From: Schmidtea polychroa | Lineage: Eukaryota | Length of the DNA stretch: 64,000 nucleotides | Reading direction: 5' to 3' | Assembly: GCA_044892525.1 (NCBI GenBank) | Contig: CM097886.1 | Location: 82,584,001-82,648,000, forward strand | In this document: positions 1-60,724 of the stretch, in pieces | Layout: each line of letters opens with the position of its first letter | Numbering within the stretch: position 1 is the first letter of the stretch | Position numbers and translations under genes: made by a program | The notes under the pieces: model-generated | What the model was told of the DNA's origin: nothing | Database searches by the model: none | What the model saw: the letters and a program-made list of their open reading frames with translations, nothing else

Positions 1-3000
1 GTCCACGTCATCAGAAATCATAAAAGCCGGTTTAAGTCGGCACAAATTTATATTTTGGGTAACACCGTTAATAACGATGTGAGCATTGTTATCCTTAATG
101 TCGATCAATTTGTAAGGCCCCGAATATCTCGGTTTGAGACCTGAATCCGTAATATTACGAAGATAAACGTGAGTTGCGTCCTTGAAGGACTTTGGGACGT
201 ACGGTGTATATGAGGAAGCATAAGAAAACTGTGGGTTGCTATCGATCGAAAGAAAATGATCTCTAGCCATATCTAATTCCTCAAAGGTAGGAGCGTTATC
301 GAAATCAACTAATTCGTTAGGTAACGATGTTGAAGAACCAAAAAGTAACTGTGCCGGTGTAGTTCCGGTAGTCCTGGAGGGTGTGTTACGCCAACCAAGA
401 AGGACAAAAGGTAAAGCTTTAGTCCAATTAAGTCTCGATGAAAGTATTCCAAGAGAGGTCTTCAAAGTACGGTGAAATCTTTCGATCATGCCGTTTGTCT
501 GAGGATGGTAAGCAGTTGAACGGAGGTGTTGTATACCGAGCTTTTCAGTTAGCTGTTGAAATAACTGGGATTCAAACTGAGATCCCCTGTCTGTGATTAT
601 TGATTTCGGAACACCGTATCTAGAAATCCAATGTTGCAAAATTGAATTTGCTACAATTTCAGCAGAAATGTTTTTCAGAGGAATAACTTCAAACCAACGC
701 GTTTTCCGGTCAATCATAGTTAATAAGTAAGAAAAACCGCGATCAGAAGGCAAGGGGCCGACCAGGTCGATGTGAAGAATTTCGAACCTATTTCCGGTCG
801 GATAGTGAATCATCTGTGGCTTAGTGTGTCTAGTGATCTTGTGTTGTTGACAACCGATGCACTGACTCACCCACAATTTAATATCGTGCCTCATTGCTGG
901 CCAAACCACATGTGAATGCAATAGGTTGAAAGTAGCCGACGAACCTGGATGATGTAAGTCGTGAATGGAGTGGAAAGCTAATTTCCGTAAGGAATCGTGC
1001 AAAATCGGTCTTAAAACACCTGATAAAGACGAGTCAAAGTGTACTCCGTCCACGATTTCAAGCTTATCGCCAAAAGCAGCTAGATCTTTTGCCGAAGGTG
1101 GATTGTCGCGGAGGCACTGTACTGGAAAAATCGGATCGTGCAATATAGCGTTGGTACTGCGGGAAAGACAGTCTGCAATAACGTTTTCTTTGCCGGCAAT
1201 GTGGCGTTTTTCGCAAGAAAATTCTGAAATATAACTGATTTGCCTCTGTTGTCGTGGAGATGGGTCTTTCATTCCAAAAAGATAAGTTAGCGGTTTGTGG
1301 TCAGTGTAGATGACAAAAGGACGACCTTCAAGCAAGTGCTTGAAATGTTTGATTGAAAGATATATGCCTAAGAGTTCTCGGTCGAAAGCCGAATATTTCC
1401 GTTGAGCGGAAGAAAGTTTCTTTGAGAAAAACTCTAAGGGTTCAGAAATGTCATTATGTAATTGGTGTAATACTGCACCAATAGCAACGTTTGATGCATC
1501 AGTGGTCAGACTCCAAGGTAAATCAGCATTGGGAAAATGGAGTGTTTGGATTTTCGAAAGTGCCGACTTAGCGTTTTCAAATGCACTGAGTGTGGTATCG
1601 CTCCATGACACTAAAGACTTTTTTGGTTTTGAGACGAGACCTGAAAGAGGTGACAAAATGTCAGAAACCCCTGGAATAAAACGATGACAATAGTTTATCG
1701 TTCCCAAAAAACTTCTCAGTTGTGAAACTGTTTTTGGAAGTGGGAATTTGGCTATGGTATCTAGTCTATCCGGAGGAGGTCGGATTCCATCTGCGGAAAT
1801 TAAATGTCCCAGGAAACGAGTCTCGTGTTGGAAGAAAGTACACTTATCGACGTTTACCTTAAGGTTGTATTGCCGAAGTGCTGTTAAAGTTCTTGTTAGA
1901 TGGGTTTTATGCGTCTCTAAGTCAGGTGATCCGACTAAAATGTCGTCTATGTAAGGAACTGCGAAAGGTAGGTCCATTAAGACTTGATCAATATACCTTT
2001 GAAAGGTCTGTGCAGAATTCCGAAGGCCAAATGGCATATGCACGTACTCGAAAAGTCCGATCGGAGTTATTACGGCTGTTTTTTCTATGTCAGACTCTCG
2101 CACGGGTATCTGATGGTACGCCTTCACGAGGTCGATTGTGGAGAAAGTCTTTGCCTTTGAAAGACGGTGAAGGATATCACTAACAAGCGGCATGCTATAG
2201 GAATCATGTACCGTAATAGCATTAAGGTTTCGATAGTCGCCACACGGACGGAAAGTGCCATCTTTTTTTGGGACCAGGTGCAATGGCGATGACCATGGAG
2301 ATTTAGATCTCCGAATGGTACCCTCATGTAAGAGGTTAGTAAACTCGGAACGTACAAATTCGAGTTTTTCATTCGACAGTGGTCTAATTTTGCATCTAAC
2401 TGGTAAAGATGAAGTTGTGTCGATCGTGTGGCAGTAAAGCGGCTTCGAAACGTCACTTATTGGCGTGTTAAAACACCTATTAATAATATCTAAGGCTATT
2501 TTTGGGTGTTCGATTGTTATAACCGTTTTCGACGGAGTAGTATTTATATCGTCCGTTCCTATCCGTTGTGGATCTTCAAAGATGTTTGAGGGAATAGTGC
2601 TGCAGTTTAATTGATTATTTATCCTTAAAGTGCGTCCGCGGCAATCTACGAGTAGTTCGTTAGTGCTTAAAAAATCAGATCCTAATATGGGGATAATAAC
2701 CTCTGCTATATAAAATTTCCACTCAAATAATTGGTCGGACAGAAATGGCAACGAGAAAGCAATTGTCTTTGAACCTAAAGTCTCAACAACACTACCGTTT
2801 GCGGCCTTCAAAGAAATATCGACAGTGTTGAGGTCTGGAAGGTACTCTTTAGGTAAGATCGACAAGCTGGAACCAGTGTCGACAAGGAATTTTAGTCTGT
2901 TGGAAGGAGACGACAATATATTAAAAGCGTTTGACTCTGCTTCTATTAAAAATAAATCTGATTTCGATGAAATTTTGCCTCCCACCTCTGCCGCTAGAAG

Positions 3001-3015
3001 TGGTGGCATTATAAG
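1..3015 (-). CDS. pol: Pol polyprotein (protease, RT, RNase H, integrase) in the -1 frame relative to ORF1, open to the window edge
   Basis: Hand-translated motifs, all in one frame: FLVDTGSS (DTG 2872-2880), YIDD (1942-1953), TDAS RNase H (~1492-1503), HHCC zinc finger (~850-960), STAYHPQTNGMIERFHRTLK (~430-520), GPYKLI...RLKPAF (~25-120). First in-frame ATG at 3009. Absence from the ORF track is consistent with no stop before the edge. Confidence 0.93.
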
Positions 3016-3021
3016 TTTTTT
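2977..3021 (-). promoter_or_regulatory. -1 programmed ribosomal frameshift signal (A AAA AAC, 7-nt spacer, hairpin)
   Basis: Heptamer 3021-3015 is in the ORF1 frame, and a -1 slip enters the pol frame. GCCACCACTTCT-AGCGGC-AGAGGTGGGAGGC (3007-2977) can form a stem-loop 7 nt downstream. Confidence 0.8.
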
Positions 3022-3053
3022 TGATTGCTTGCTTTAGGTTTTGTGTAATTGGA

Positions 3054-5858
3054 TCAGCCTTCGAAGCATTTTAAGGCTTTATCTCCAAACCTGTCGTGGT
3101 ATATGCACTTGTCAAGTATCTGACAGGATGGTGCTTTATCTCGCCAATTGCAACCTAGATGGCAGAACCGTGCCTTGTTACGAAACTTAAAATGGAAACG
3201 GCACAGGTTCCTGGTTGCAGGGGAAGGTGAACGTTGACGAGTATTTTGCACAAAGTGTGATTTTTGGGCATATTGCCTGTCGTCATTTGTCCGCCTGGTG
3301 GACATGCTATTCTCAAGCTCGCTGATGCGTTTAGTGAGGCCTGTAATAGCGCAAAGTAAGGCTTCTTCGGTCGAAGGTTTTAAAGAAGAAGAAGAAGGTA
3401 AAATTTCGGGGTTAGTGCTGCTACTTAACTGCACAGAGCAAGTTGGTTGCGGACCAAGTGGCACGACTTCGTTAATCTTGTCGGCCATCTTTGCTAGCTC
3501 TACCACGTCTGCTGTTGACGAAAGCGCTAAAATTTGTTGTGCGTGTGGCGGTAAAGCAGACAGAAAAAATTGCCTCAAGAGTTTTTGATCCGCCGCAGCC
3601 TCCGGGTGTATTTGCGTTAGTTCCGCCATAGCGTGTTGCAAGAACTGTGATGGTTTTCTGCTGCCCAAAGTTTGCGTCTTGAAGTATTTAGTGAAGACGG
3701 CAGCTGTAGGTTCCTTAAAAATATCGAGGATTGCCGTACGCAATTCTTCATATGGGTTTTTTACGCTAGTAGGCGAAGTGCGAAGGATCACGGACGAAAG
3801 TTTACTTAATTTCGTCGGCGGAATCAACGGCAAGATGCGACAGTATTTGTCTCGTGAACTGGTTACCTCGATTCCCTCGAGTGCTAGTTCGGTAGCTATC
3901 AGCCAAGTAAGTGGAGAGTTATTCTCATCCAAAAAATATTGACATAAGTACGTTGATCGCTGGTTGTTGGACCTACGCTTATGTTTTGCCTGTTTGGGGT
4001 TGCTGCATGAGTCATTCTCCGAATCGGAGGAACCGCCAGAAAGTGGCAACAAACAATGAATGACGCTGTATGGTGTCACTCCATAGTCGCCCAAGGTACG
4101 ACTGTCGGAAAGGATGTTGCCGTTATACGACAAGAGAAAATGGCATTTGTGATTAGTCAATGTCCTGTAATTTTTAGAAAGACCTTTAATTGTAGTGTCT
4201 GTGTCAACTGAAACGGTTTGTGTCTTATTTGTTCCAGGGTTTTCTATTAATATTTGGAACTTTTTGGGCCCCGGTGCGGCGCTACCCTCTCGTGTGGGCT
4301 GATGCTTATTTATATAATTTTTTATAATTTTATATATGATATCAATAATAATATAAATCAATAATAATATAGTATAATTTAATAATAATATAATAATATA
4401 ATTTAGAGGTAATCGATCTAAGGTACCTGGCGGTGCTGACACGGGCATTGCTCTATTGAGTCTCGATTCGCTGGGAGACGGTTTATTATCGTGAATAAAT
4501 GGCTGTCCCGGTGCACGAGAGTTTAATGTGAAAAAATCATTATTCTGTTGCATTAAGAATTCCTTTGGATTTGGTCGAAGCATGATGCGTTGTGGGGCTG
4601 TGTGTAAGACATCACTCGTTAGCGATTTGTTATTTGGTATATAATTATTGATCGGAGTCATTTTTTGACGATTTTCAACGGCAATCATCTCAGCCAATGC
4701 TTGCCGGGAAACATTAATCGAATCAAAATCTATATCGGCTGTATCTTTATATTTCTGATCGTAATGTGAATTCGGTTTCTCCGAGCCAAATATGCGATTT
4801 ATATCCATTTCGTTTCGATCCTGATACTGACCGTAGTTAAGTACACCGTTGTTGTTTGCCTGTTGATTGATGTTGTGATCGTATGACTGATTATTATTGT
4901 TGTTATTGTTGATTGCGGCGTGGTTTTGAGAATTTAAATGGTAGAAACTTTCCAGCAGAGAATTCGACGAACCAACTGAATTCAAACTGTTCATAAATGA
5001 TTTCTGATCTGAAACTCCTGGCAGGGGAGGTGTGGAATTCAGTGTACTGTGGAATTCAGTAATATCATTAACAGCTGAGCTATTGAAAGCACTGAATAGG
5101 GGATATTCGGATTTAATATCCGATGATTCAGATTGTAATTGAATACTTTTATTGATAAATTTGAAAGACGATTTATTTATCGGGTCAGCAATTTGAAATT
5201 GACCATTTGGGATATGATTATTATCTGTGATATTTGCAGGGGTTGAAATGGAATTACTTGATGATGTAGACTGCTGTAATTCTTTATAATACATATTTAA
5301 ATCCTTACATAGAACGACTACAGGATCCACAGAATCACGATCTGGAATTGTCTGAATTAATTTGATATACTCTTCTCGATTCGATGACAAACAACAGGAA
5401 TGAGCAATTATCAAATGATCTATCAGCCTATCAATATCATGGGATATAAGATTAAATTTTGATGAAAGTTTTAATTCAGAAAATATTTTGGAAAGCATAT
5501 GGAACATATTTTGACGTAATTCCGCTGTTCGTTTATGAGAAACTAACATAGATTGTATTTCCTGTAATCTGGATTTAACAATGATATTAGATAAATAAGT
5601 TTCTAATTGTTCAAATCTTGAACATTGTTCTGGCACTTCTGACACCAATGTTGTACCCGGTAATTTAGCGGCTTTTGACATTCGATTAGAAACAGGAACA
5701 CTTTCATTAAAATATGTCATTGAACCCGCAAACTTTTCTTGCATATCACACAAATATAATAGTGAATTTTCCAACGCAATTAATATCACAAATTTCAATA
5801 TATTTAAAGACAGTTCAATTTTTATACACAAATTAGAAATTTTATGGAAAAAGTTCAT
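3054..5858 (-). CDS. gag: ORF1 polyprotein: N-terminal extension + TM-like segment + ubiquitin-like domain + Gag (934 aa)
   Basis: Aa 610-934 contain Gypsy capsid-like motifs (LGSRKPSQFL, LLRQFFLSALP, LAKMADKI) and C-x2-H-x9-C-x3-C at aa 886-903. Aa 534-609 match ubiquitin by position. Aa 487-511 are hydrophobic. Confidence 0.9.
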   Translation of the reverse strand: MNFFHKISNLCIKIELSLNILKFVILIALENSLLYLCDMQEKFAGSMTYFNESVPVSNRMSKAAKLPGTTLVSEVPEQCSRFEQLETYLSNIIVKSRLQEIQSMLVSHKRTAELRQNMFHMLSKIFSELKLSSKFNLISHDIDRLIDHLIIAHSCCLSSNREEYIKLIQTIPDRDSVDPVVVLCKDLNMYYKELQQSTSSSNSISTPANITDNNHIPNGQFQIADPINKSSFKFINKSIQLQSESSDIKSEYPLFSAFNSSAVNDITEFHSTLNSTPPLPGVSDQKSFMNSLNSVGSSNSLLESFYHLNSQNHAAINNNNNNNQSYDHNINQQANNNGVLNYGQYQDRNEMDINRIFGSEKPNSHYDQKYKDTADIDFDSINVSRQALAEMIAVENRQKMTPINNYIPNNKSLTSDVLHTAPQRIMLRPNPKEFLMQQNNDFFTLNSRAPGQPFIHDNKPSPSESRLNRAMPVSAPPGTLDRLPLNYIIILLLNYTILLLIYIIIDIIYKIIKNYINKHQPTREGSAAPGPKKFQILIENPGTNKTQTVSVDTDTTIKGLSKNYRTLTNHKCHFLLSYNGNILSDSRTLGDYGVTPYSVIHCLLPLSGGSSDSENDSCSNPKQAKHKRRSNNQRSTYLCQYFLDENNSPLTWLIATELALEGIEVTSSRDKYCRILPLIPPTKLSKLSSVILRTSPTSVKNPYEELRTAILDIFKEPTAAVFTKYFKTQTLGSRKPSQFLQHAMAELTQIHPEAAADQKLLRQFFLSALPPHAQQILALSSTADVVELAKMADKINEVVPLGPQPTCSVQLSSSTNPEILPSSSSLKPSTEEALLCAITGLTKRISELENSMSTRRTNDDRQYAQKSHFVQNTRQRSPSPATRNLCRFHFKFRNKARFCHLGCNWRDKAPSCQILDKCIYHDRFGDKALKCFEG

Positions 5859-6115
5859 TTTTTTTGGAATATATAAACAAGCCAGGAAATCTTTTACAAA
5901 ATTTCTACATATAAGTAAACAAAATTACAAAGAATACAAAATTATGTCATTCGATAAAAAATAAACAGATTTTTAAAAATATGTGATTTAAAAAGCTTAA
6001 CGATTTTATAACGTTCGCGTAAGAATTTCAAATAGTCAATTTCTAATAATTAAATGCAGAATAAACAAATTTAGGTTTTATATTATTGTTAGGATTTGTT
6101 CCGTATTTCGCGAAT

Positions 6116-6426
6116 TGTAATGGATGAGGGTGTTGGTCTATGAGAGCCAACACTAAAACTATTGGGAGCCGAATACAGTTTATCTTGATAATGATAACAT
6201 GGCATCGAATTTGCTTTACTCTTCTGAGATTGATTAATAGAGCCTGATTGATAAGTAGAAGTATTAGCTGATCGCACGAATTTTGATTGACTGTTATTGT
6301 GTTCTGTTTGGTCCTTAGTCGCTGGTGACCGCGCATTTATATATATAATATAATATCGTATAATATAATATAATATAGTATAATAGGTATATAGATATTG
6401 TTAAGGCCGTGTAACGGCTCACTACA
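6116..6426 (-). repeat. Putative 5' LTR of the Gypsy element (inner boundary tentative)
   Basis: Starts TGTAG at 6426. TATA-like TATATAAAT at ~6335-6343. Candidate end ...CCATTACA at 6116. The 3' LTR is not in the window and no canonical PBS was found, so the inner edge is unverified. Confidence 0.5.
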
Positions 6427-7036
6427 CATAGCTTTACGGCAACAGGTCGCATGCGTCATGCCACCTTTGCGGAAGTGGCCAAATGGGTGGTCGAGGCATG
6501 GGATAAATTGAATCCGGCGATTATCACCAGTGGATTCAAGAAAGCGGAAATCTTACTGGCAGACAATTATGACAACGACGACTCTGATAGCGATGATGAT
6601 GATGACAACTATGAACTGACTGTACCAGATGAAATTGGTCAATTATTTGAAAGCGATACTGAAGGCTTTAATGGATTTAATGGATTTACAGACTCTGATT
6701 TTTATTGATAAATTTAACTTCATTAATCGACATTTATAACTTAGGCATTTCGTTTTATTGATATAAAGAATTTCTCTATAAATTAAAAAGAAATATTCCA
6801 CGTTATTAAATACTTGCGCTAAATGATTTTTGTTCTCACCTCTTCTCTTTAGTGTCTTTAATTAAACTTGGTGACCACCACCGAACAAAGTAAACATTTC
6901 CGCAGAGGCATGCTTATTACTGTATAAGTGCGACTTAAATAACGGAGCGACTTATATATTAATTTTTCCAAAATTTTAGCAATTTTTTACAATTGCGACT
7001 TATACACAGGAGCGACTTATTACCCGGAAATTACGG
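6427..7036 (+). mobile_element. 3' part of a pogo-type DNA transposon, truncated by the Gypsy insertion
   Basis: HSFTATGRMRHATFAEVAKWVVEAW...GFKKA (6427-6708) parallels the C-terminus of the transposase at 59366-60724. Ends in a TIR ...CTTATTACCCGGAAATTACGG followed by TA (7037-7038). Confidence 0.85.
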
Positions 7037-7038
7037 TA

Positions 7039-7742
7039 ATTAAAAATCAAAATTTTAAAAAATGAATATTTTCTGGGGGAAACTGGTATGGGCGGATGCT
7101 AAATAATGAGACGAGTTCAGCTATAATAAAATAAAATCAATGGGGGGTCCCTAAAAAGAATAAATTACAAAAAACAAACATTAATTAAAAATTAATTAAC
7201 TAATGAAAAACCCGAGCTAATGGGAAACCCGAGCTAATGGAGAACCCGAGCTAATGGGAAACCCGAGACAATGGGAAACCCGAGCGAATTGAGAAATCCA
7301 ATTTTGGGAAGGCAATTAATTTAGCCGGATAAAATAAAAGTAAGAAGAGCCGTCAAAGAAAATGAGCCAATTCCCTTAAATTGAATTAGACCTCCAAGAG
7401 GAAGCCCGGGGGGAAGTAAGACCAAAACTAATTGGCAAAAATAAAGTCAATTACCAAGTGGGTATAAAAGCAACTGGCAAGAAAACAAAACTGCCAGTTG
7501 GTCGAAGAAAAGAAAGTCGAAGTTTAACGAGAGCGAAAAAGGAAATATTAAAGTTGAGATTTGTTGGCAAATTGAAAAGTGCAGACAAAACCTGATTGTA
7601 TCAAGTGTGAGTAAACTAATAAAAAGTGTAAAAGTGTAACTGCATCAGTGTTAATAAAGATTTTGTGTTGGGTCATTTATTTATTTTGAAAAGAACTTAA
7701 AGGAGTCAGACCGTGGTACCGACTTACATTAAAAGCCCAACA
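7039..7742 (+). mobile_element. Solo-LTR-like element, 5' end displaced by the pogo insertion
   Basis: Closely similar to the reverse complement of 39274-40100 apart from its first ~90 bp. Ends GGAGTCAGA...CCCAACA. Contains a 17-18 bp tandem repeat CCCGAG(C/A)(T/C)AATGG (~7200-7275). Confidence 0.8.
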
Positions 7743-7749
7743 AATTTAT

Positions 7750-8890
7750 AGTTTATATATATAATTAGACTATAATTTATACATATATACAAAAATTGAC
7801 GGTTTATACTTTGTATATCTGATTAATTTATAATTTATACTTTACGAGCTTATAATTTATATATAACTAATTGTAATTTACAACTCTTGGGATTCACCAT
7901 CTATATTTATGAATACTGAAATTATAGTTTGCAACCAAATTTACACTATATCATTAATAATTTATATTTTACGAATAATTCAGATTTTATAATTCAAAAT
8001 TATAGCCTGTAACCAATGTTCCCTCTAAGCCATAAGCAGCAGTGCGCGCAAAGTCAGCTGCACTGAGCAGCCTTTAAATACAAATGAGCGGTTGAATTAA
8101 ATATACTGCGCTGAAAATAATTTTGCTGCGCTGGGGAGTTGGAGGTGCTGCGCGCGCGTACGCGCGCAGCTTAGAGGGAACGTTGCCTGTAACCAAAATT
8201 ATACTCCATAATCCACATTTTACACTTTATAAATAAGTTATATATTGAAATTACAGTTTGTAACCAAAATCATACTTTATAAGTTACAATTTATATTTTA
8301 TAAATAAGTTATCTTGAAATTACAGTTTATAACCAAAATAATAGTTTATAATCTATAATTTATATTTTTCGAATAAGTTATATTTGACATTTTGAAATTA
8401 TAGCTGATAACTAAAATTATACTTGGTAATTTATAATTTATATTTTACACATAAGTTATATTTTGAAATTACAGTTTATAACCAAAATTATGGTTTATAA
8501 TTTATGATTTATATTTGTCGAATAAGTTATATTTGATATTTTGAAATTATAATTGATAATTAAAATTATATTTTGTAATTTATTATTTACATTTTATAAA
8601 TAGGTTACATTCGAAATTACAGTTTATAACCAAAATTATGGTTTATAATTTATGATTTATATTTGTCGAATAAGTTATATTTGATATTTTGAAATTATAG
8701 TTGATAACTAAAATTATACTTTGTAATTTATAATTTATATTTTATAAATAAGTTATATTTCATAAATTGCGAACTTATAATTTATATTTTCACAGAAAGT
8801 GCTAAAATATAATGTATAATTTATGAGTGTTATAAATTCATAATTTATAATTTGTAGGTAATATGAACTTATAGTTTTTGGTTTCATAGG
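7750..8890. repeat. AT-rich degenerate minisatellite
   Basis: Recurring units of the type AAATTACAGTTTATAACCAAAATTATA...AATAAGTTATATTTG. Confidence 0.75.
8014..8185. mobile_element. hAT MITE
   Basis: TIRs CAATGTTCCCTCTAAG / CTTAGAGGGAACGTTG. 8-bp TSD CCTGTAAC at 8006-8013 and 8186-8193. Confidence 0.9.
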
Positions 8891-13757: not shown

Positions 13758-16700
13758 ATGCCTAACTCACCACCAGCTAAAAAGCAAAGATTAGAAACCT
13801 ACGAAACTAAGAAAATGAACAAAGATTTTGGTATCACTAATACTGCTAATAATTCAAATGTAATTTTCAAATGTAATTAATTTATGAATTAATTTTAAAT
13901 TTAGGGAACTATTATAAATGGAATAGAAATTGATGAAAATTTATATAGTAGACAACTATATGTAATGGGAAAAGAAGCCATGAAGAATATGACCAAATCA
14001 AATATTTTAATTTCTGGAATGGGTGGTCTTGGAGTAGAAATTGCGAAAAATGTGATTCTTGCTGGAGTGAAATCAGTGACTGTACATGATGAATTAAATG
14101 CAACCGAAGGCTCTCTATCATCACAATATTACTTAAATGAAAACAACATTGGACAAAACAGAGCAACAGCTTGTTTCAAGCAATTAGCAGAATTAAACAA
14201 TTATGTTAACGTCAACGTTAATACAAATCCATTGACAAAAGAAATGTTATTAAATTTTAATATTGTAGTTCTTACAAATATTAAGCAAGATGAAATTAAT
14301 AATATTTCTGGCTTTTGTCATTCGAATAATATAAAGTTAATTATAGCTCGAACATTTGGACTTTTTGGCCAAATTTTCTGTGATTTTGGACCAAATCATT
14401 TAGTGACAGATTCCACTGGAGAAGAACCTTTAACAGTCATGGTTCAAAATATTCAAAATGACGAAGAAGGTTTAGTTGTCTGTTTAGAAGAAACTAGACA
14501 TGGATTTGAAACAGGGGATTACGTAACTTTTTCGGAAGTGAGAGGGATGACAGAATTAAATCAATGCTCACCAAGGAAAATTAAAGTTGAAGGTCCAAAT
14601 TCATTTAAAATTGGCGATACATCAAAATTGTCTCCATATATTGCCGGTGGAATTTGTTCTCAAGTAAAAGTCCCTGAGTATATAAAATTCAAATCGTACG
14701 AAGAAGCATATAAAAATCCAGAATTCGTTTTGAGTGACTTTGCTAAAGTTGATCGATGTAAACAATTGCACATATTTTTTTATGCTATTGAAGAATATCA
14801 AAAATTTCTACAAAATTCCGATGAAAGTTCTAGAAAATTCGATGACTTTATTCAAATTGTGAAATTAGCTTGTGAATTAATCGATTCAAGTATAGAATTA
14901 GATGAGAAATTAGCTCTAAAATTTTACAGCATTTATAACGGAAATGTTATTCCCATGCAGGCTGTTATTGGAGGAATTGCCGCACAAGAAGTTTTGAAAG
15001 CATGTTCATCTAAATTTTTCCCAATTAAGCAATTTTTCTATTTTGATGCTCTTGAATGTTTACCAGATGAACTAATCGATCAGGGTAATGTAATAAATGG
15101 TAATACAGATGCAATTTTAAAAAATGGCAATGCACCACATTTGAATTATAAACTGAATCGTTATAAGAGCCAAATCGAAGTGTTTGGTGTAAAATTCCAG
15201 GAGAAATTATCCAGAATGAAAATTTTTCTTGTTGGAGCTGGAGCTATTGGTTGTGAATTATTAAAAAATTTTGTTATGATGGGCGTTGGAGCATCTATTA
15301 ACGATTCTGATGATGATTCCGGTAAAATTGTTGTCACAGACATGGATTCAATAGAAAAGTCAAATTTAAATCGTCAGTTTTTGTTTCGATCGAAAGATAT
15401 AGGAAAGATGAAATCTCTCACTGCCGCAGAGGCCGCTAAATGTATGAATCCGTATGTTAGAATTGAAGCTTTGGAACTCAAAGTTGGAAAAGAAACCGAA
15501 TCATATTTTAACGACGCGTTTTTTAACGATATTAGTGTAGTAGCAAATGCCTTGGATAATGTCGAGGCTCGCCAATACATGGATAGACGATGCGTTTTCT
15601 ATCTGAAGCCTTTACTCGAATCTGGCACACTTGGAACTAAATGTAATGTACAAGTCGTTCTTCCACATCTCACAGAATCATACAGTTCATCCCAAGATCC
15701 ACCAGAGAAATCCATACCAGTTTGTACAATTAAAAACTTCCCCTATTTAATTGAACATACAATTCAATGGGCCAGAGATTTATTTGAAGGACTTTTCTCT
15801 CAACCAGCTGCTGCTGCAAATCAATTTCTTACAGTAATTATATTTGAGTTTTTATTTATTGCTATATTATTAAAGACCGACCTAGGAATTCTTTTGAACT
15901 AGTTAATAAGTGGTTTTCGTTAAAACTTTGTATAATGTTAATTTACAATTATTTTTTGTAAATAATTTTCTTCTATTATTTGTGTTCAGAAATTGTCTTA
16001 ATGATAATTCTGACGGTAATTTGTTACAGTGCACTATATGTTTTAAAAATGAAATAAAATTTGAGCTATAGATTAAACATGTCAATTTATAAGAACAATA
16101 TTGATTATTCTAATAAGAATAATAAAAATTCGAATTAATCCCCCCCTCGAAATAATTCTCCAACAGCAATTATCATTATTTGAATAAATATATAGTAATC
16201 GCGACAATTGTAGTATTTTGACAGCGGCTTCCTAATCGGTATAGATTATGTAATTTAAATATTAAACTATTATTATTAATTACCTGTAGTAACATGTTGA
16301 GTGTGAACAATACCCTTGTGACCATTTCCGATAAGGGGACAAAATATCTTGTCGGATAAACTTGGACTATATTCGCGCGTAAATACTCACATTTGATATA
16401 TAGTTTTTAAAAGTTGAAGGTTGAAGACACACCATACACCTTCGAGAGTATGACCATTGGATAGAGCTCTTCAGGACCTTTCGAATGATACCCATGACAT
16501 CATTTGACTGTTTATAATTTGAATTGTTTTGATTTTTTTTAATATTTCCTAATTTGGCACTGTCAAGATTCTACAATTGATCCTAATATTGTTTTTATCT
16601 CTCGAATTCGACTTTATATAAATTACTTATTACTTCGAATATAAGCCGCACCCTAATTTTGCACATTAAAAATGTAAGTAAAAAATGTGGCTTATATTCG

Positions 16701-29809: not shown

Positions 29810-32800
29810 ATGCCATTTTGTAAAAAAAAACTTAAAGTTGATGAAAAAGCGGTTCTTAAAAAAGAAATTGGCGTTTTACAAGGTGTAAGTATAATCATTG
29901 GTGTCATTATTGGATCTGGTATTTTTGTATCTCCGGTTGGGGTTCTTAAACATACTCATTCTGTTGGCCTTTCATTTGTTATGTGGCTCTTAACAGGAGT
30001 ATTTAGTTTAATTGGTGCTTTAGTTTATGCCGAACTTGGTGTCACTATTCCTTTATCTGGTGGTGAATATATATACATTCTCAAAACCTTTGGGGGACTA
30101 TTGGCATTTTGCTGTTTATGGATAACATTTCTTTTAATTGGCGCAGCTAGTACTGCAGCAAACGCTTTCATATTTGCGCAATATTTATTAAAGCCATTAT
30201 TTTTGGAGTGTGAAATACCATCTAGTGCACAAATTTGCCTTGGTTTATTTGGAGTGTGTAAGTTTTTTTATTGGATTTTTTTGCGGTTATTAAAATTATT
30301 TAAGTCACCTTATTGGCAATCAATTGCTACAATGTCAAATGGGCTGCCAAGTTAGCAATTGTTTTTACTATTGGAAAAATATCAGCACTACTATTGATTG
30401 TTGGTTTAGGACTTTTTAATATTTTTATGGGTGAGATTTTGTTTTGATGCATTCCAAATTTTTCACTTTTGGTGAACCTTCATCCGTATCAGAAAATATA
30501 ACTCTAAAATCCATTTGGTCCAAATGTACCTATATATATATATATATATTTAAAATTATAAATTGTAATTTCACAATATTTTATATGATAATAAGTTAAA
30601 CAAGGATTTCCCAAACGGCGCCAGGTAATATTTCAGTTTTTTGTTTATATTAAGTATATATTCAAGAAAACAGTATCCAGTTTTTAAAATACAAATTAAA
30701 GATGAGAATGTTATCCTTTTTCTTTACTCAATATGAATGAGCGTATTTGTGGATTTTGCGCACTATCGTCCTGTTTGCTTTAAAATGGGATCGCCTTGTA
30801 ACTTTTTTAATCGAGACATTTAAAATAAGAGTCAAAATGTTGTTTCGTGTTTTGTAGCGAATTACGTAGTTCGTTCAATAATGCATCGGATTAACTAAGA
30901 AAGAAACACAACACAAAAACTGAAATAACTTTTATTGAACTACATCAAATACTAGTTCGAAAAACACATCTAATTATTTCTCTATATAACTACCATTGGC
31001 AACAACCAGCTTATTCCATCGAATAACCAAATGTTGAAATGTATCAGCAAAAAAACGTCCAGCAAGCTGTGCGAACCACTGTTCAACATATTGCTGGAGT
31101 GCATCTGATGTCTTTCTTCAAGTGTTTGAACAAAAAAAGTCGCTCGGAGAAAGGTCCGGGATGTAAGGTGGTTGTCGGAGAAGTCTAAAACCATTCTTTT
31201 CTGTTGAACATCGTGCAACATGACTTGCATAGACAGGAGCATTATCAACAAGGAGTCAAAGCGGAATATTTCCTGATTTCCGTTCCTCAACTAATTTGGC
31301 ATAGTATTGACCATTTATTGTTTGTCAATTAGGCAAGAAATCTAGGTGAATGAATGAACTTTTGTCCCTGTAGTGGATTGTTGTAAATAATTGTTGTAAA
31401 CAATATCCTAACTAGGTTCTGTGTTTTTTATTTATTATTGTCTCCGCAACGTCTGGGAAAGAAAACTTTAAAAAACTTTATAGCGATAATTTACTACAGT
31501 AAATTAAAAGAAACGAAAAATCAAAAAATAAAATCAACAGAATAAAGGTTGATTTAACAAAACCCAGCCGTTATCGTTGGAAAAAAACTGCTTCAAACTG
31601 CGAAAAAAGCCACAATTTTATGATGGAATGTGATTATGATTTACATCGTGGGTTTTTAACTTTTACCACATGGTAAATTTTTTGAAGGCAGGCGGGCCGC
31701 ATAAAAAGTCAACCACATTTAAAAGTATAGTTTCATTATGAAAATGAAAAATAGATTGTATATAATATATATGCAAAATGCAAAAAGTTGAGCATAAGAA
31801 AAAAATATTCGCTAAAAAATATATTTATAAATGGACTTATGTAAATGTAAATGTATATATATATATATATATACAAGTAGTACTTATGTAAAATAAAAAA
31901 ATTAAATTTTAAAATTGCATATAAACTTTATGAACTGTTTTAGTATTTTATATTTTATTAGTTATATACAATTTTTTTTTGTAAAATTCAAATCATTTGG
32001 TAGGCCACATTTTCAAACATCTTGGGTCGCGGGTTGGCCACTGCTAATCTACATGGAGTAATGGAATCACAAGAATCCAACTAAATGCCAGTGAATGTAT
32101 GATCTGAGTGTATCTTTTCAAGTTAAAAATGTAAACAAATTGAAATTTTGGGAAAAGTTAAATGCTTTCAAAGAAAAGTTACATCTTTGGTGTCGACCAA
32201 TTTTCCAATTTTCCATCACTCGTAGAAATGATTTACGACGAGTCGCTAATTTCAAGTGTGTATGAAGAAATTGAAAATTATTGGACATATTTTGGGGGGA
32301 ATAGAACTGGAAACTTCTGAAAACCGGTTTAAATACACAATGCTTCAATTTGGATAAAATCGAATGAGAATGAGCTGAAGGAATATCTTCTTGAATTGCG
32401 CACAAATCGTGTTTTTAAGATGAAGTTTAAAAGCAAAACTTTTGAACGATATTAAAGTTCGACAATGGACATGTATTCAAAACACCATTAAAAGACACTA
32501 ACTGTGATCATCCCATTCGCTACGATATACTTATACGAGTCAAGATTTAGTGCCTTTTCATTATTCAAGATAAAAACTAGAAATCGCTTAGATACTGACA
32601 GATCTGCAGATTTTGCTATCAGCAACAAGGTGCCACGTTTTAAAAAACTCTAAGCAAAAAGCAAAAACATGAGTCAATAAATTTAATTTGGTTTATGAAC
32701 ATATAAATCGTTTTGATCACGTATGTTTGTGAAAATTTAAATATTAACGTTGCATCGTAAAAATTATTATTATTATTATATTGCTGTTGTCATTTTCAAA

Positions 32801-38800: not shown

Positions 38801-41800
38801 TAAAACAATATTTTAAAATAATTATATTTAGTTTTACTGTGATAGATTTCTTATTTTAGTGCTCCGAATCTGTTACTAAATTTTTATAGATAGTATTTAA
38901 TTCAATATTAAAATTTACCAAAGTACTAATTAAGCAAGTGAAGATTTTTTCTCCGTTTCACATCTTTTGAATATTGGAACAGCAGAAACATAATTTTTGA
39001 ATATATATTTAAACAAACATGGAAACAATTTAATTATAAGAAGTCGCCACTCAAACATTCGTGTTACAATATATTTCAACAGTTTTAATAACTAGTATAT
39101 AATAGCTAGAAATTATAGATTTCTGAACAAATTTATTGAATTAACCAGCAATATTTTTATTTTAACAATGTTTTCATACATCTATTCAATTTTTTCTTTT
39201 TAAAAATAATATTTAACTTTTATAATATTTTAATTTAAGTGTTAATCCAAAATTCACTAACTGTGGTTAACGGTGTTGGGTTTTTAATGTAAGTCGGTAC
39301 TACGATCTGACTCCTTTGTGTTCTTTTCAAAATAAATAAACGACCCAACACAAAATCTTTATTTAACACTGATGGAGTTACAGTTTTCACTCACACTTGA
39401 TACAATAAGGTTTTGTTTGCACTTTTTAATTTGCTAACAAATCTCACGCAGGGATAGATCTTCCAACGGGAGATGTCCCTTTCTGGTACGTTCAATTTTT
39501 AAATTATTTATTTTCTACTAACTTTAATGTTTCCTTTTTCGCTCTCGCCAAACTTCTATTTTCTTTTTTTCGACCAACTGGCAGTTTTGTTTTCTTGCCA
39601 GTTGCTTTTATACCCACTTGGTAATTGACTTTATTTTTGCAAATTAGTTTGGGTCTAACTTCTCCCCGGCCTTCCTCTTGTAGCTCTAATTCAATTTAAG
39701 GAAATTGCCCCTTTTTCTTTGACGGCTCGCGTCACTTTTATTTTATTCAGCTAATTTAATTGCCTTTCCAAAATTGGATTGCTAATTCAGGTTTTCTCAA
39801 ATCGCTCGGGTTTTCCATTGTCTCGGGTTTCCCATTAGCTCGGGTTCTCCATTAGTTAATTAATTTTTGTTTTTTGTAATTTATTTCTTTTAGGGACCCC
39901 CCCACCCATTGATTTTATTTTATTATAGTTGAACTCGTCTCATTATTTAGCATCCGCCCATACCAGTTTCCCCCGGAAATTATTCATTTTTAAAAAATTT
40001 TGATTTTTAATTAATATTTTGTATTTTAAATTTTATTTTGAATTTGGTGTTTTTATCGATTTTCACCTCATTTTTGTGCCTCTCCTGTTGAACCCCAACA
40101 ACGGGCTTAAATAATTAACTGTTTTGGTAGAGTTAGTCCAGTTACCATACAATTCAAGACAATTAAAATTTCATTTCATTTATTTTCTTATCAAAATTAT
40201 ACATTTTATAAAATTTTATCAACAATCAATGTGAGAGCAACCTAAATTTATATTGTTGACATTGATTTTTGCGACCATTAATTTTTGGTTTAATCAATTG
40301 TAAACCATTTAAATATTTGAAAGTTAAATTTTAACTTGTCGAAACATTCATATCGGTGTTTAAAAATAAATCTTGCATATTGTGACAACAAAAATCTGAA
40401 ACCTAAAAATTGAAGGGTCCAAAAGAATTGTGATAACCTATTGCAGTGGTTCCCAAATGTTTTCTGCGAAAAGAGTAATAAATTTTACTATTTTCAAAAG
40501 TAAAATTTTTAATTCGATTCCGATTTCTAATTAAATTGTTGGGTTATATTTGTTAAAGTCGGTTCTGACTCTGACTCCTCGTGGTCTTTGTTTCAATTAT
40601 TAAAATAAGACCAACACAGAATACTTTATTAAACGTTAATAAATTTCTATAAAAATTCAATAAGGAAAGTTACCCAACGGAAACTGCATTTTTATTAGAT
40701 TTTGAATATTTGAATATTTTCTTTCTCTTTGTTCAATCTGTGGCTGATTTCTCTTCGATCAAACTGGAGTTTATCTATCAGTGTCATTTCTTTTTATACT
40801 GGTTTTACTCCTAAAATTTTTACAATCAAATAATTTAATTAACCAGTAACCAAAACTACTCAAAATAAAACAATTAAGCAGGCGTCATCTCGCCGTTGCT
40901 CAAAAATCTCCTGTCACTAATTCAATACTATTCCATCTTTATTGATTTTTTGAGTGAGACCTAATCTCATTATCATTTTGATTACCACTTTGATTTTCTA
41001 CATAGCTAATAAACAATTTATATATTTTTTAATTAATTTACCGTATTAGCTTGAAAAAATTACTCATAAAAAATTGAAAATTAAGTGAAATTCAGTCAGA
41101 TAAGCGTTTGGTTAGGTATTTAAAAGTAATACATAGGTTATATTTGTTGGATTATGAAGTTGGTCATAAAATTAAAATTCTTACTCTGATTCCAAGCGTT
41201 TCTTTGATTGACCCACAAATAACAATTAACACTGAAAACTTTATTGAATATCACAAATATTTTCACACTGATACAATTGACTCAACAAGCTAACTATTAT
41301 ACCGTGTTTATTACAACACTATGGTGAGGAATAGCATATTCGTATAACTTTGATTTGAAAAATCTCTCACAACTGAGGAGTTTACTAATTGATAATTTTA
41401 ACTGGTTGTTCTCTGATTTTGACTTGGTTTTACTCGCCTAACTTTATTCTATTATCAACTGAATAAACGATTGCTGATTCTCTTTAATTCTGTTTTCTTT
41501 TTAGTTTCTCTGTTTCAATTTTATTCAAATATTTCTTCTAAATTGTTCTCTCAATGGCTTCTCCAAACTGTTCACTAATACAATTCTCCCACGTCTTTTT
41601 AATTTTTTAACTCGTCATCTATATAGTTTTTTTGCTTCTGCTGTGCCACATCCTTTTATACCTCGTCAATTTGTGACACTTCTGTTTATCTTCAATTCCA
41701 CCATTTTTTTCCAACATGATTTTCCAGTTTTCCCTGCAGCCGAGTTATCTTTGACAGCTGTCGCAATATTTATTATTTTTTCCTTTTGCGGCTCCGGCCT

Positions 41801-44800
41801 GCTTTTGTTTTGTTTCCCTTATCCCTGACAAGCTGTCGAAAAAAGAATATTGTTGTTTTTCTGTATTCCAGATTTAGAAATTCTTTTTCCTTTTTGTATT
41901 AATTTGCCCTTGGTTTTTATTTTCATGTTTGATTTCTTTTGTTTCCTTCATCTTCCTCATTTCTCATTTATTTTTGCTTCCCCTTTCTTTTCTGAGTTCC
42001 CACCGATTGTCCCGTTTGTCATGACGATCTTCCCCCAGGTAATCTTATCTATTTATTTCTAAATTGTGATTTAGCTATCCTCAACATATTCATGATAATA
42101 AATTTAATTAATTTAAACCAAAATTAATATTACGTAAGTGGAGACATATTCGAACTGCAACAGCGCTGCATAAACAAAGGCGCTGGCCTAGACCACATGG
42201 TTGTTCTGACGTGTTTGGTCAAGGTATGAGTTGTTCAGAAGCTTATTAGCATTTTAATCTCCGTAGGAGAATGTCGTTATTTAAATTACATTACTTAAAC
42301 CCCGAATTTAGCGCGAGTCGATTATTTAATAAAAACAAAATGTTAAAAAATATCGCGTTATATTCGGGCTAATACGATATATTTTTTGAATTTAATTTTA
42401 TTATGCTTGCATTCGTCTCAACATTTGTTTTCCGTATATATATATATAGACATTTCCATCGGAATACATCATTTTTATTAATTTAAATTCCTTTTCTGCT
42501 TTTTAGACAACCCCAACAAAATTAAATTTTTGAATATTCTAAAAATCTTCCTTGATATATAAAAATTTCAATCTAAAATATTAATCTGATGAAAATTGTG
42601 CAATTAAAATCTTGTAATTGAAAACTGCATCGAATGCTACAAAGGTTTTTGAAATTAGAAATATATATGATGGTAATTATGTAATCACGTCATCATAAGA
42701 ATTATTAATTTTAGTTATTAAAATCAATGAATTTATAAAATTTTGAGATATTCAGTACCTAATTTTTAATAATCTTGCAAATGATTGTCTGACAATATGA
42801 ATAAAATCTAAATGAATTCTTAAATTGTGAATGTTGAAAATAGTTTATTTAAAATTCTAATTACTTTTTAACACTTGCCGATTTGTTTATTTAAATAGGC
42901 AATATTGTTTATTTGGCCAATTACGTATTATTTATTTTTATTTGTAGAATTTGTTATCTGTATTTGTATGATGTCCCGAATATCGATCATATTGTTTTAT
43001 TAAAATCTATCATTAATTCGATCAAATATTCCATTATAACTATTTTTGTTTTAATTTTAAATTTAAAGTCTTAATAAATGTAAAAATCATTAGTAAATAT
43101 AACGCTACAATTTAAATGCACACTATTTTAATGTATTTGCACACTATAAATGCTAACTATAAATAATAAATGCTAACTATAAATAACTATAAATAATAAA
43201 TACTAACTATAAATAACTATAAATAATAAATGCTAACTATAAATAATAAATGCTAACTATAAATAATAAATGCAAACTATAATAAATAAAAGCTAACTAT
43301 AAATAAATTATTTTCTAACTATGTTTGTTTTATTCATAATAAATCTTTGTCGTTATAGCAATGATGGAATTTAAAAAAAATTCAGAGTTTGACTTTGTTC
43401 CAGAATACTGTTCTTCAGGAAATGAAGATGAAGAACACGTTTTAAAACTTGAAACTCGAAGGAAAAAAATTTGCAAAGACTGGAAAAGAGCAAATGCATT
43501 TGCAAGTTCAAATGAAGCTGAGGATTTTGTAAAAAACGAAAAAGTGTGGTCTTGTTTTCGGACAAATAAATCTGAAGAGGGGAAAAAGAGGTTTTCCCGC
43601 TGTAATCGTGTTAAATTTCGTGGAGAACAATGTTCAGTCTCAGTTTACTTGTGGTACGAGTCCAGCACTAGTGATGTTGTTCTATACAGATCAGGACATG
43701 CACATGATTGTGACAACATCAAAACAAGAACAACAATGACAGATACAGTCAAAGCTGAAATTGACAAATTATTTTGTTTAAAATTGAAACCAAAAGCAAT
43801 GTTAGAACATTTGTCTAACGAAAAATTACCCCTTCCGAGTCAAACACAACTGAATAATCATCTGGCATCCTTGAGAAAGTCCAAATATGGTGCCAACATC
43901 ATTAGCCTTGGAGAATTAAATCAGTGGTTGCAAATTCATTCAGCTGTTCCAGAAGCAGATAACAAAGCATTTGTTGTTGCATATGAAATTAAATATGAGG
44001 ACACTGGATATTTCCGGTACTTCATTTCATCCAAAACAATGTTGAAAATGGCTTTAAACGCTGACAACATTCATGCAGATGTTACATACAAACTTGTATG
44101 GCAAGGCTTCCCTGTTCTTGTTATTGGTACAACAGATCGCAATCGCCAGTTTCATTGTTTTGGTATTGAAGTATGCACCGATGAAAAAACTGAGGACTTC
44201 AAATTTTTGTTTACTGCATTGAAGAATGAAGTTCCTAAAATCTTCAATGCTCCCTTCAATCCAAGCACATTAATTTCTGATGCATCAAAAAGCATCCAAA
44301 ACTCTTTCATAGCAGTGTTTGGCAAAGACGTATTGGTGATTATGTGCTGGGCTCATATGAAAAAAAATGTTCAGAAAAAAGTGGATTCTTTGATTCCAAA
44401 AGATGCAAGACAGGAAATTTTGTCTGACATTGATTCTTTGCAACTCAGTCAATCCAGAGAAGTTTTTGAAAAAGCATCAATTTTATTCTTGAAAAAGTGG
44501 AAGGCAAACTAGGAGTTTGTCGAATACTTCACAGCTGAATGGCTGAAATCAAATAAAAATTGGTTTGAAGGTGCCAAAAAACTAACACCTAGCACAAACA
44601 ATGCCCTTGAGGCATACAACCGAGTCATGAAAGATGAAGATTCTATGAGAGAGCGAGTCTCACTATCAATATTTACTGTTGGATTGGTTGATTGGATTGA
44701 AAGGTGGTCCAACAATTACGAATCTGGAATTAAAGTCATCAAAACCGAACCAGAAATTGATTTGGAACTTTGGACTAGCTCATACCAGTGGGCAAAGTTG

Positions 44801-57530: not shown

Positions 57531-59365
57531 TTTAATCTCCATTCAAATTAATAAGAATTTTTTAATAAAATCTAGTAAATAATTTATTTAGATTGAATAA
57601 ATAAATTTTAATAATTACTTAAAGGTTAACTTATCACACATAAACTCAATTTGAATGACTGATTGCTCATATTATTCAGAAACTTCAGTATAAATTCATT
57701 TAAAAATTATCAAAATCGTCAATCTACGTTAGAAATACCTAAATAAAATTCCCTAATGATAACATCGAATAAACCAGTTCTCTGAATAAATTACTCTAAG
57801 TGACAATACAGATCGAATGATTACGTACCACTAAAATGATCTAAAAAGCATCAAATTTCTCTAAAATATTTATCCGTTTTGAAAGATTGGTATTTTAGAG
57901 ATTATTCTCCTCTTAATATCAAACCAATAAGATTCATTAAAATCCCATTAAATTACAACATCTCTCCCTTTAACTTTGATCTATTATCTAAATATCACAA
58001 ATATTTCACTATAAAACATCTAAAATCAAGAAAATTATATATTGATCATTAACCCGAAATAATTTATAAAATCTATTGAAACCCATTCAAGTTCAATAAA
58101 ATCAGTTATAATTAAAAATAATTAAATCTTTGTTCTAACGCCAAATCAGTCTCATAGATTCAAAACACGTTAAATCAATTGGTCCTTAATATTTTAGTAC
58201 ATCTCATTGATTCTATTTTTAACTGTGTCGTTTGAAAGCGGGATTAAGTTAAGGTCTTGGGCAGCTTTGCTTCCTATCATTGTTGAGACTATTGCTTTAG
58301 CAGCTGGAAGAATTTAATTTTCAGCGATAATGTGGGGTTTTCCAGATTTGGCTACTAGGAGAGACAATTGAAATGACGCATGTATCGCTTATTCATCATT
58401 ACTTCCTGTGACGGTTTTTTAATCAATTTTTGGCTTGTTTGTAGTTCATGTAATTTCATTTTAAAATATTCAATCGGTTTGTTTACATAATCCTTATGTT
58501 TCGATTCTAAATGTCGGCGAAGTTTTGCTGGTTTCATCGATTCGTTGGACAAATGGCAGTGACAAAGAACACAAAGAGGTTGCTCCACATTTTCAAATAA
58601 TGTAAATCCCAATGATAAGTATTCGGCAGAATATTTTCGAGTTTTGCACATCAGTGTCTTCTTCGCCTTGGAACATGATGGGATATCATGTTCATCAGAA
58701 TCAGAATCGTCTCGTTTGCCGTTTTTGCGCTTTGGTAACTTACCGAATTTCAACCATTGATCCATAATTATTAGGAAAACATAAAATTATAATTAACTAA
58801 TAACTACCGTATTTTCGCGCATATAACCCGCATACGCGCATAACTCGCACATGCGTATACCCTGCACAAATTACAAAATAAGTAAAAACAAAATTTTACG
58901 ACCCGCACCCTTATATACCCCGCATGTGCAAAGTGATACTTGCCGTAAACTACCAGTACATAAGGTTGTTGCTGATCAGACGTCTGTCCCTCGAGACGCA
59001 ATCGTGCTGCAGTTGTTGTTCCAACAAGCGATACATGGAGTGCAACACGCGTGTGAAATACGATACGAGCCTACGTCGTATCTGTAGTATATTGTTTTGA
59101 CAGAAAGTCGTTGACCTAGTTATCTGGTGATGGTAGGAGAAAGATTTGCTGCAGCAGCTGAGCTGGGCCCTACGATTGGCCTGATTGTGCATTGGCTGGT
59201 GCTCGGCCTTATTGTGTAGGCTATTAATTCCTGGGGTAATCAGCAGCACGGGTATTCTTGTAGTTTGAACTTCGTAGCGTATAGTGTGCAGCACGTGCAA
59301 TTAAAGTGTATAACAAAAGTGTATAAATTCTAATCAGTACTCAGTAAAGTCTTTTAAGCCTAAAA

Positions 59366-60724
59366 ATGCCAAAGCGTAATTCATATACAGCCGATTTTAA
59401 GCTGCAAGTTTGTGCAGTTGCTGCTACAAAGGGCAATAGAGCTGCTGGAAGACAGTATGACGTTGATGAAAAGTCAGTTCGCGAATGGCGAAAAGACATT
59501 GAAAGTCTACAGCAAATTAATCCCCGCAAAAGAGCTCGTCGAGGGGGAAAGGTTAGAAGGCCACAGCTGGAGACAAACCTCGCAGCATGGGTTCGCTCTC
59601 AGCGTGAAAACAACAGGGCAGTGTCAACTGTTGGTATCAAACTGAAGGCGAAAATAATGGCTGCTGAAATGAAGATGGATAATTTCACTGGTAGCAACAA
59701 CTGGGTTTTTAAATTCATGACACGTAATCAGCTGTCGGTTCGTGCACGGACAACTGTTGGCCAGAAACTACCAGAGAATTGGGAAGTGAAAGTTAACGAC
59801 TTTCAGGAATTTGTTAGAAAGGATATCGTTGAACAGAATTTAAATCCTTCTGCTGTCTATAATATGGATGAGGTACCCATGTCTTTTCATATTCCGGCAA
59901 CTCGCACTGTAGCGGAAAGTGGTTGTAAAACGGTTGCTATTACCACAACTGGACATGAACGCACCTGCTTCACGGTTGTCCTGGCGTGCTCAGCTGCCGG
60001 TGAGAAGTTGAAACCATTGATTATATTCAAAAGAGTGACAATGCCACGTGAGAAACTGCCTCAGGGAGCAATCGTACTGTGCAACAAAAAAGGATGGATG
60101 AGCACGGACGTGATGAAAGAGTGGACTGAACGATGCTTTCGTGCTAGACAGGGTGGATTCTTTCTGCCAAAGTCGTTGTTGATTTTTGATGCAATGGCTG
60201 CACACAAAGAGCCGTCTGTTCACAAACAGATCAATAAGACCGGTGCGCACATTGCTGTCATTCCGGGTGGATTAACATGTAAGCTTCAGCCACTTGACAT
60301 CGCTGTTAATCATCCATTCAAGTGTTTTGTCCGCAACGAATGGGAGAAATGGATGAGTGAAGGAGAACACATTTTCACACCATCAGGAAAGCAGAGACGT
60401 GCTACGTACATTGAAGTATGCAAATGGGTTCTGGCAGCGTGGCAGCAAATCAGCACTGAAACTATTCGCAATGGTTTCAAGAAGGCTGGCCTGCTAACAG
60501 TTAGTGAAGCTAATTCAGAGCCAGCAGTAGAGGGCAGCTTCATTTCGGCCGACAATGTGAACGCTGATACTGACGATGATGATAGTGATGAAGAGTCGAT
60601 TTATGACCCAACTACTGTTGCCAACATGCTTCGCTTATTTGAAGAAGACAGTGAATATGATACGAGTTTCGATGGCTTCACTAACTATAGCGAGGACAGT
60701 GACATTAGTGAGACTGGCGATTGA
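59366..60724 (+). CDS. Intact pogo transposase (HTH, CENP-B-type HTH, DD35D)
   Basis: 452 aa. NMDE, LIFDAMAAH and QPLD with 35 residues between the second and third Asp; acidic tail. Confidence 0.92.
   Translation: MPKRNSYTADFKLQVCAVAATKGNRAAGRQYDVDEKSVREWRKDIESLQQINPRKRARRGGKVRRPQLETNLAAWVRSQRENNRAVSTVGIKLKAKIMAAEMKMDNFTGSNNWVFKFMTRNQLSVRARTTVGQKLPENWEVKVNDFQEFVRKDIVEQNLNPSAVYNMDEVPMSFHIPATRTVAESGCKTVAITTTGHERTCFTVVLACSAAGEKLKPLIIFKRVTMPREKLPQGAIVLCNKKGWMSTDVMKEWTERCFRARQGGFFLPKSLLIFDAMAAHKEPSVHKQINKTGAHIAVIPGGLTCKLQPLDIAVNHPFKCFVRNEWEKWMSEGEHIFTPSGKQRRATYIEVCKWVLAAWQQISTETIRNGFKKAGLLTVSEANSEPAVEGSFISADNVNADTDDDDSDEESIYDPTTVANMLRLFEEDSEYDTSFDGFTNYSEDSDISETGD

Follow-up and report, generated by a model that had tools for sequence, protein, structure and literature searches.

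The TGA codon at the fourth zinc-ligand position of the second Gag zinc knuckle in a Ty3/gypsy LTR retrotransposon of Schmidtea polychroa is very probably a nonsense substitution private to one copy, which likely arose after insertion. The UGA is not a trait of the family. Double recoding, i.e., UGA readthrough combined with a -1 frameshift, fails because 96 of the 97 copies with the exact pattern around the codon have TGC, and only this copy has TGA. The copy likely represents ordinary neutral decay and not an unusual double recoding.

Neutral decay is expected to yield nonsense changes of this kind in single copies of an expanding family, and the finding as such matters little. A UGA common to the whole family would have been striking, as it would imply obligatory readthrough plus frameshift; the copies rule this out. 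What is of use is a well-supported predicted -1 frameshift cassette, together with a Gag that carries an unexplained ubiquitin-like domain. Positions below refer to the window, which is the whole analysed stretch of 64,000 nucleotides (contig CM097886.1, 82,584,001 to 82,648,000).

The TGA codon in this copy, its sisters and its relatives

Both knuckles are read on the minus strand where the original prediction had placed them, with TGA as the fourth ligand of the second (Table 1). The frame was said to stay open past the TGA through the heptamer, and re-reading bore this out: 14 further sense codons (SNYTKPKASNQKNL) precede the normal gag terminator. The stop in the -1 frame and the opening of pol in that frame from 3033 were likewise found as described. 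The hairpin after the heptamer is present too; its spacer, given earlier as 7 nt, is 6 nt from the heptamer to the first pair and becomes 7 nt if the terminal U-A pair is discounted. The residue numbers 886 and 918 have to be abandoned, as they were counted from an ATG near 5858, within the 5' LTR, the first ATG after the PBS being at 5549.

Table 1. Features of the element and its surroundings (window positions)
Feature	Position	Strand	Remarks
Pogo/Tc5-type transposase piece, insertion target of the element	6427..6555	+	Other piece in locus L131
TSD CTATG, 5 bp	6427..6431	-	Second copy beyond the 3' LTR (locus L131)
5' LTR, 778 nt, TG...CA	6426-5649	-	Bounds set by sister-copy comparison
PBS, 14-nt complement of the host tRNA-Leu(CAG) 3' end	5647-5634	-	
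ORF1/gag, counted from the first post-PBS ATG	5549-3009	-	Ends at the normal TAA
Ubiquitin-like domain in ORF1	4047..4232	-	PF00240, E 2.6e-08, above cut-off
DUF7041 match	3711..3920	-	Below Pfam cut-off
Knuckle 1, complete C-x2-H-x9-C-x3-C	3203-3150	-	CRFHFKFRNKARFCHLGC
Knuckle 2, C-x2-H-x9-C-x3-stop, CHCC type, truncated	3107-3054	-	CIYHDRFGDKALKCFEG (3107-3057), then TGA
TGA	3056-3054	-	Takes the place of the last zinc ligand of knuckle 2; absent from all sisters
TAA closing the pol (-1) frame upstream	3036-3034	-	Missing in 9/95 sisters
Slippery heptamer A AAA AAC, gag phase	3021-3015	-	Same site in the sister family
Normal gag terminator TAA	3011-3009	-	12 sisters terminate one codon earlier
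Pol-frame ATG	3009-3007	-	Overlaps the gag TAA (TAATG)
Stem-loop 3' of the heptamer, likely frameshift stimulator	3008-2976	-	By folding; sister-family copies fold alike
pol (PR, RT, RNase H, integrase, GPY), open	1..3033	-	Extends past the window start to about -353

A 26-nt pattern spanning the codon, searched without mismatches in the whole genome, occurs once in the TGA form, which is this copy, 96 times in the TGC form and never in the TGT or TGG form. The pattern takes exact matches only, and mismatched copies are partly covered (132 candidates); two further copies outside it also have TGC. At position 3054, all 96 aligned sisters differ from this copy (29/29 in an earlier alignment). 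In a diverged sister family, with a Gag identity of about 36-42%, this Cys is encoded by TGT in the three copies whose second knuckle is readable (L164, L167 and L179), and it likewise lies 14 codons ahead of TAA; 5 of the 20 extra loci gave no knuckle match. Among outside Gag relatives, the sole one with two knuckles (P0001) carries Cys at this position. The original prediction had preferred a single Cys-codon lesion as the simpler reading and had named TGC or TGT in most siblings as the outcome speaking against recoding; alignment of the codon across genomic copies gave exactly this outcome. Just one knuckle occurs in a more distant CHCC family (L176, L177), of which L177 has its gag and protease in the same frame.

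A programmed route to Pol that combined a -1 frameshift with prior decoding of the UGA as Cys, Trp, Arg or Sec would agree with the local anatomy, where the frame is open beyond the UGA up to an intact cassette. Separation of gag and pol by a stop codon is described for Tca2 in the accessible part of PMC2194720. However, the stop is present in 1/97 copies, the sister family has a Cys codon too, and the open tail after the UGA is the normal Gag end of the family; the probability of such a route is therefore close to nil. UGA-UCC-A is not known as a strong readthrough context.

Several variants of recoding were rejected separately. Selenocysteine recoding was discarded, the UGA not being conserved: the SECIS search proposed originally gave 0 matches with a crude pattern versus about 2 in shuffles, and an Rfam scan of window 1-7000 with E up to 1 gave no match. 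The code is not reassigned to Cys or Trp, because the two ORFs, with their 30 Cys and 12 Trp codons, contain no other TGA. A slippery site bypassing the UGA was sought in the last 300 nt of ORF1, where one heptamer-like match lies in the wrong phase; upstream bypass is also blocked by closure of the -1 frame at 3036-3034.

Probable private substitution versus assembly error

Relative to its sisters, this copy has seven private substitutions in the 6,172-nt internal region (five missense, one silent and one stop). The resulting rate of 0.11% per site is about the divergence of the LTR pair (0.13% per LTR), in which the 5' LTR and the split 3' LTR differ at 2 of 778 positions. A random substitution creates a stop in 4.6% of cases, and at least one stop is expected among seven changes with a frequency of 28%. 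The lesion at a zinc ligand is unremarkable, because Cys codons are one step from TGA in the genetic code. The copy had been called otherwise pristine; it is not, because a nested element of about 37 kb splits its 3' LTR, and the six other private substitutions add to this.

Decay of the same kind is widespread in the family. Singletons behave like neutral variants (N/S 2.3-2.6; 39 stops among 1,297), and pol variants common to at least five copies are mostly silent (N/S 0.34; 0 stops among 98). An in-frame stop is found in 39/96 sisters at 41 different sites, ten of which are TGA; this count omits the AT-rich positions 4270-4400 as well as the variant of the terminator. ORF1, pol or both are broken in 64/96 sisters. 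The knuckle region is under purifying selection (pN/pS 0.16 in 71 near-complete sisters), and the Cys therefore matters to replicating copies.

Base-calling or polishing errors could occur in a high-copy repeat, in which case the true codon would be Cys. The TGA site is unique among 97 copies, and the letter of the window is found in no contig of eight public runs, the entire contig depth at position 3054 showing the letter of the sisters. However, contigs drop alleles held by one copy in 100, so that such a variant is expected to be lost from them, and other private sites that were covered (3811, 5021 and 5104) are likewise missing from those contigs. In addition, polishing with sister reads would presumably pull toward the common letter, not away from it. 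Direct-repeat pairs of sisters are 100% identical in 21 of 79 cases, which shows that repeats of this kind can be assembled without error. A real change is favoured because the internal private rate matches the LTR divergence and because of these identical pairs; an error is unlikely, and keeps a small share of the probability because rare variants are lost from contigs and other individuals may be the source of the runs.

The nonsense substitution would end Gag before the last zinc ligand, 33 nt ahead of the heptamer. This copy would yield just a Gag shortened by 15 residues at its C-terminus and hardly any Pol.

Element structure and the predicted route to Pol

The element is a Ty3/gypsy LTR retrotransposon of about 7.7 kb without env, and its family is young and comprises about 100 copies in the genome. 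The PR-RT-RH-IN order, paired TG...CA LTRs, a PBS and a TSD are all present. The pol ORF counted from the ATG at 3009 has 1,121 codons. The 3' LTR lies outside the window; it is interrupted after 550 nt by the nested element, and the remaining 233 nt are in L131.

The nested Burro-type giant gypsy element occupies 82545923-82582925, just upstream of the window start. It is about 37 kb long, has LTRs of about 5.6 kb that are 99.8% identical and its own 5-bp duplication, and encodes MATH, CCHC, fusion glycoprotein, PR/RT/RH/IN, ankyrin, BIR and RING domains.

LTR lengths of the sisters range from about 750 to more than 1,300 nt, and in many of them no stop closes the ORF1 frame across the PBS and the adjoining 150-500 nt of the 5' LTR (window 5649-5924). 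Tandem arrays of elements with common LTRs occur at L125-L127 (C309) and L085-L086. Five tandem tRNA-Leu(CAG) genes with a period of 597 nt are found at L183.

Other features of the window include a long ubiquitin-activating enzyme E1 exon (13905-15902, plus strand; ThiF, E1_FCCH, E1_4HB and SCCH) and an exon of an amino-acid permease gene (29810-30355, plus strand). A MULE transposase (43343-44512) and a pogo/Tc5 transposase with BrkDBD (59348-60724) lie on the plus strand; transposase-like ORFs without a Pfam match lie on the minus strand (58355-58786 and 61384-62385). A 17-nt tandem repeat (7183-7295) forms part of a repeat that has an inverted copy near 39274-40013. An AT-rich array of 70/78-nt tandem repeats spans 7917-8790.

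Judged from sequence, the family likely produces Pol by a canonical -1 frameshift, because the heptamer and its footprint are kept, Met is not kept further out, and there is precedent among animal LTR elements. An X XXY YYZ heptamer stands in the zero frame, pol is open in the -1 frame, and a stable conserved structure follows downstream, within the 5-9 nt expected of such sites. Nearly all sisters retain the heptamer A AAA AAC, and so does the sister family, whose hairpin stands at the same distance from it with a different sequence. The hairpin of this copy has a free energy of -17.2 kcal/mol (z -3.2; 1/200 shuffles equally good). Covariation within it amounts to one pair changed on both sides in two lineages only, which is not significant (110/500 shuffles). 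In the accessible part of PMC5009743, A_AAA_AAC is listed among the most shift-prone heptamers, and the -1 overlap is given as the commonest gag-pol arrangement in animal LTR elements.

The pol-frame footprint of X XXA AAC, [KG]K[LPHQR], was found in 40 of the 52 Pol relatives that show the region before the protease, versus 42 of 1,277 control windows. These 52 come from a total of 120 relatives; the other 68 were set aside since their called start hides the region, they are without a protease motif, or they are gag-fused. In sister copies, ribosomes would read Gag to its TAA, and a minority would slip by -1 on the heptamer before the hairpin to give Gag-Pol.

Pol could alternatively be started by a stop-restart at TAATG instead of frameshifting, and this copy might then keep some Pol. 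The ATG is unchanged in 95/95 aligned sisters and present in 2/3 sister-family copies with a readable junction, as well as in L166, and the closest Pol relatives (P0012, P0013 and P0015) are called from a Met in a like position. However, Met is found in 0/16 KK[LP]-type relatives further out, whereas 40/52 relatives retain the heptamer footprint, and the ATG sits within the base of the hairpin. Moreover, one extra A in the slippery run fuses gag and pol in frame in four sisters (L074, L078, L092 and L102), as expected of such a run. The restart is thus a very improbable source of Pol. The in-frame ATG that had been offered as a third way to Pol does exist; as the route used by the family it is unlikely. 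In this copy, translation would terminate at the TGA 45 nt upstream of TAATG.

Ubiquitin-like domain of ORF1 and comparison with known systems

ORF1 comprises, in this order, a long N-terminal extension, a hydrophobic stretch, the ubiquitin-like domain, a DUF7041 capsid-type region and two knuckles. It measures about 815-845 codons from the first post-PBS ATG in 49/96 sisters, and its indels common to at least five copies preserve the frame in 5/5 cases. PF23055 is found in 11/11 Gag relatives. The ubiquitin-like domain, which the sister family shares, has a pN/pS of 0.45. Constraint on the N-terminal extension is weak (pN/pS 0.77). The hydrophobic stretch (window 4335-4400, minus strand) consists of 20 very hydrophobic, membrane-like residues and gives no purifying signal (pN/pS 2.8); its DNA is AT-rich and about 83% like part of the LTR.

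A literature search for a Gag of an LTR/gypsy retrotransposon with a ubiquitin-like domain found no description. The family may already be named in repeat catalogues. We suggest tentatively, at somewhat less than an even chance, that it belongs to an undescribed CHCC-type Ty3/gypsy lineage whose Gag carries, ahead of the capsid, a ubiquitin-like domain under selection together with a hydrophobic, membrane-like segment, and which also has two CHCC knuckles, priming by tRNA-Leu and TSDs of 5 bp. The ubiquitin-like domain could steer Gag processing, turnover or particle assembly.

Gypsy elements of planarians are named in PMC8532177, and in its accessible part none could be tied to the family of the element with the TGA; the accessible part of PMC2774666 yielded no CsRN1 or CHCC passage. 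According to the part of PMC6431247 that was available, the giant planarian gypsy element Burro/GYPSM1 is matched by the nested element in size, LTRs and domains, and Burro has a Ubi2/SUMO-like motif. The element with the TGA is not Burro, being about 7.7 kb long, with CHCC knuckles and no env.

The CsRn1 clade (CsRn1, PwRn1 and AgCR-1 to -14), as presented in the accessible part of PMC2582038, resembles the element in its CHCC knuckle, PR-RT-RH-IN order, GPY/F motif and lack of env. According to the same text, the clade is recognised by its CX2HX9CX3C knuckle at the C-terminal end of Gag, pol overlaps in the -1 frame in nine AgCR elements, and stop-corrupted copies are common. However, the TSD of the clade is 4 bp and its PBS corresponds to tRNA-Trp, whereas here, of the 48 sisters for which both ends are available, 45 have a TSD of 5 bp and none has one of 4 bp, and the PBS corresponds to tRNA-Leu(CAG). 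The element further differs from the clade, so far as described there, in its two knuckles, LTR ends TG...ACA and an ORF1 of about 845 aa with a ubiquitin-like domain. On its TSD and primer, the family is therefore not placed in the CsRn1 clade.

Tca2 of Candida albicans, the nearest precedent, is similar in having a UGA between gag and pol sequence; as far as the available part of PMC2194720 goes, that UGA is the element's own gag-pol boundary, whereas here the UGA lies within a zinc knuckle in 1/97 copies. Compared with -1 frameshifting in animal LTR elements, nothing is different at the level of the family, and in this copy the predicted frameshift site stands behind a premature stop.
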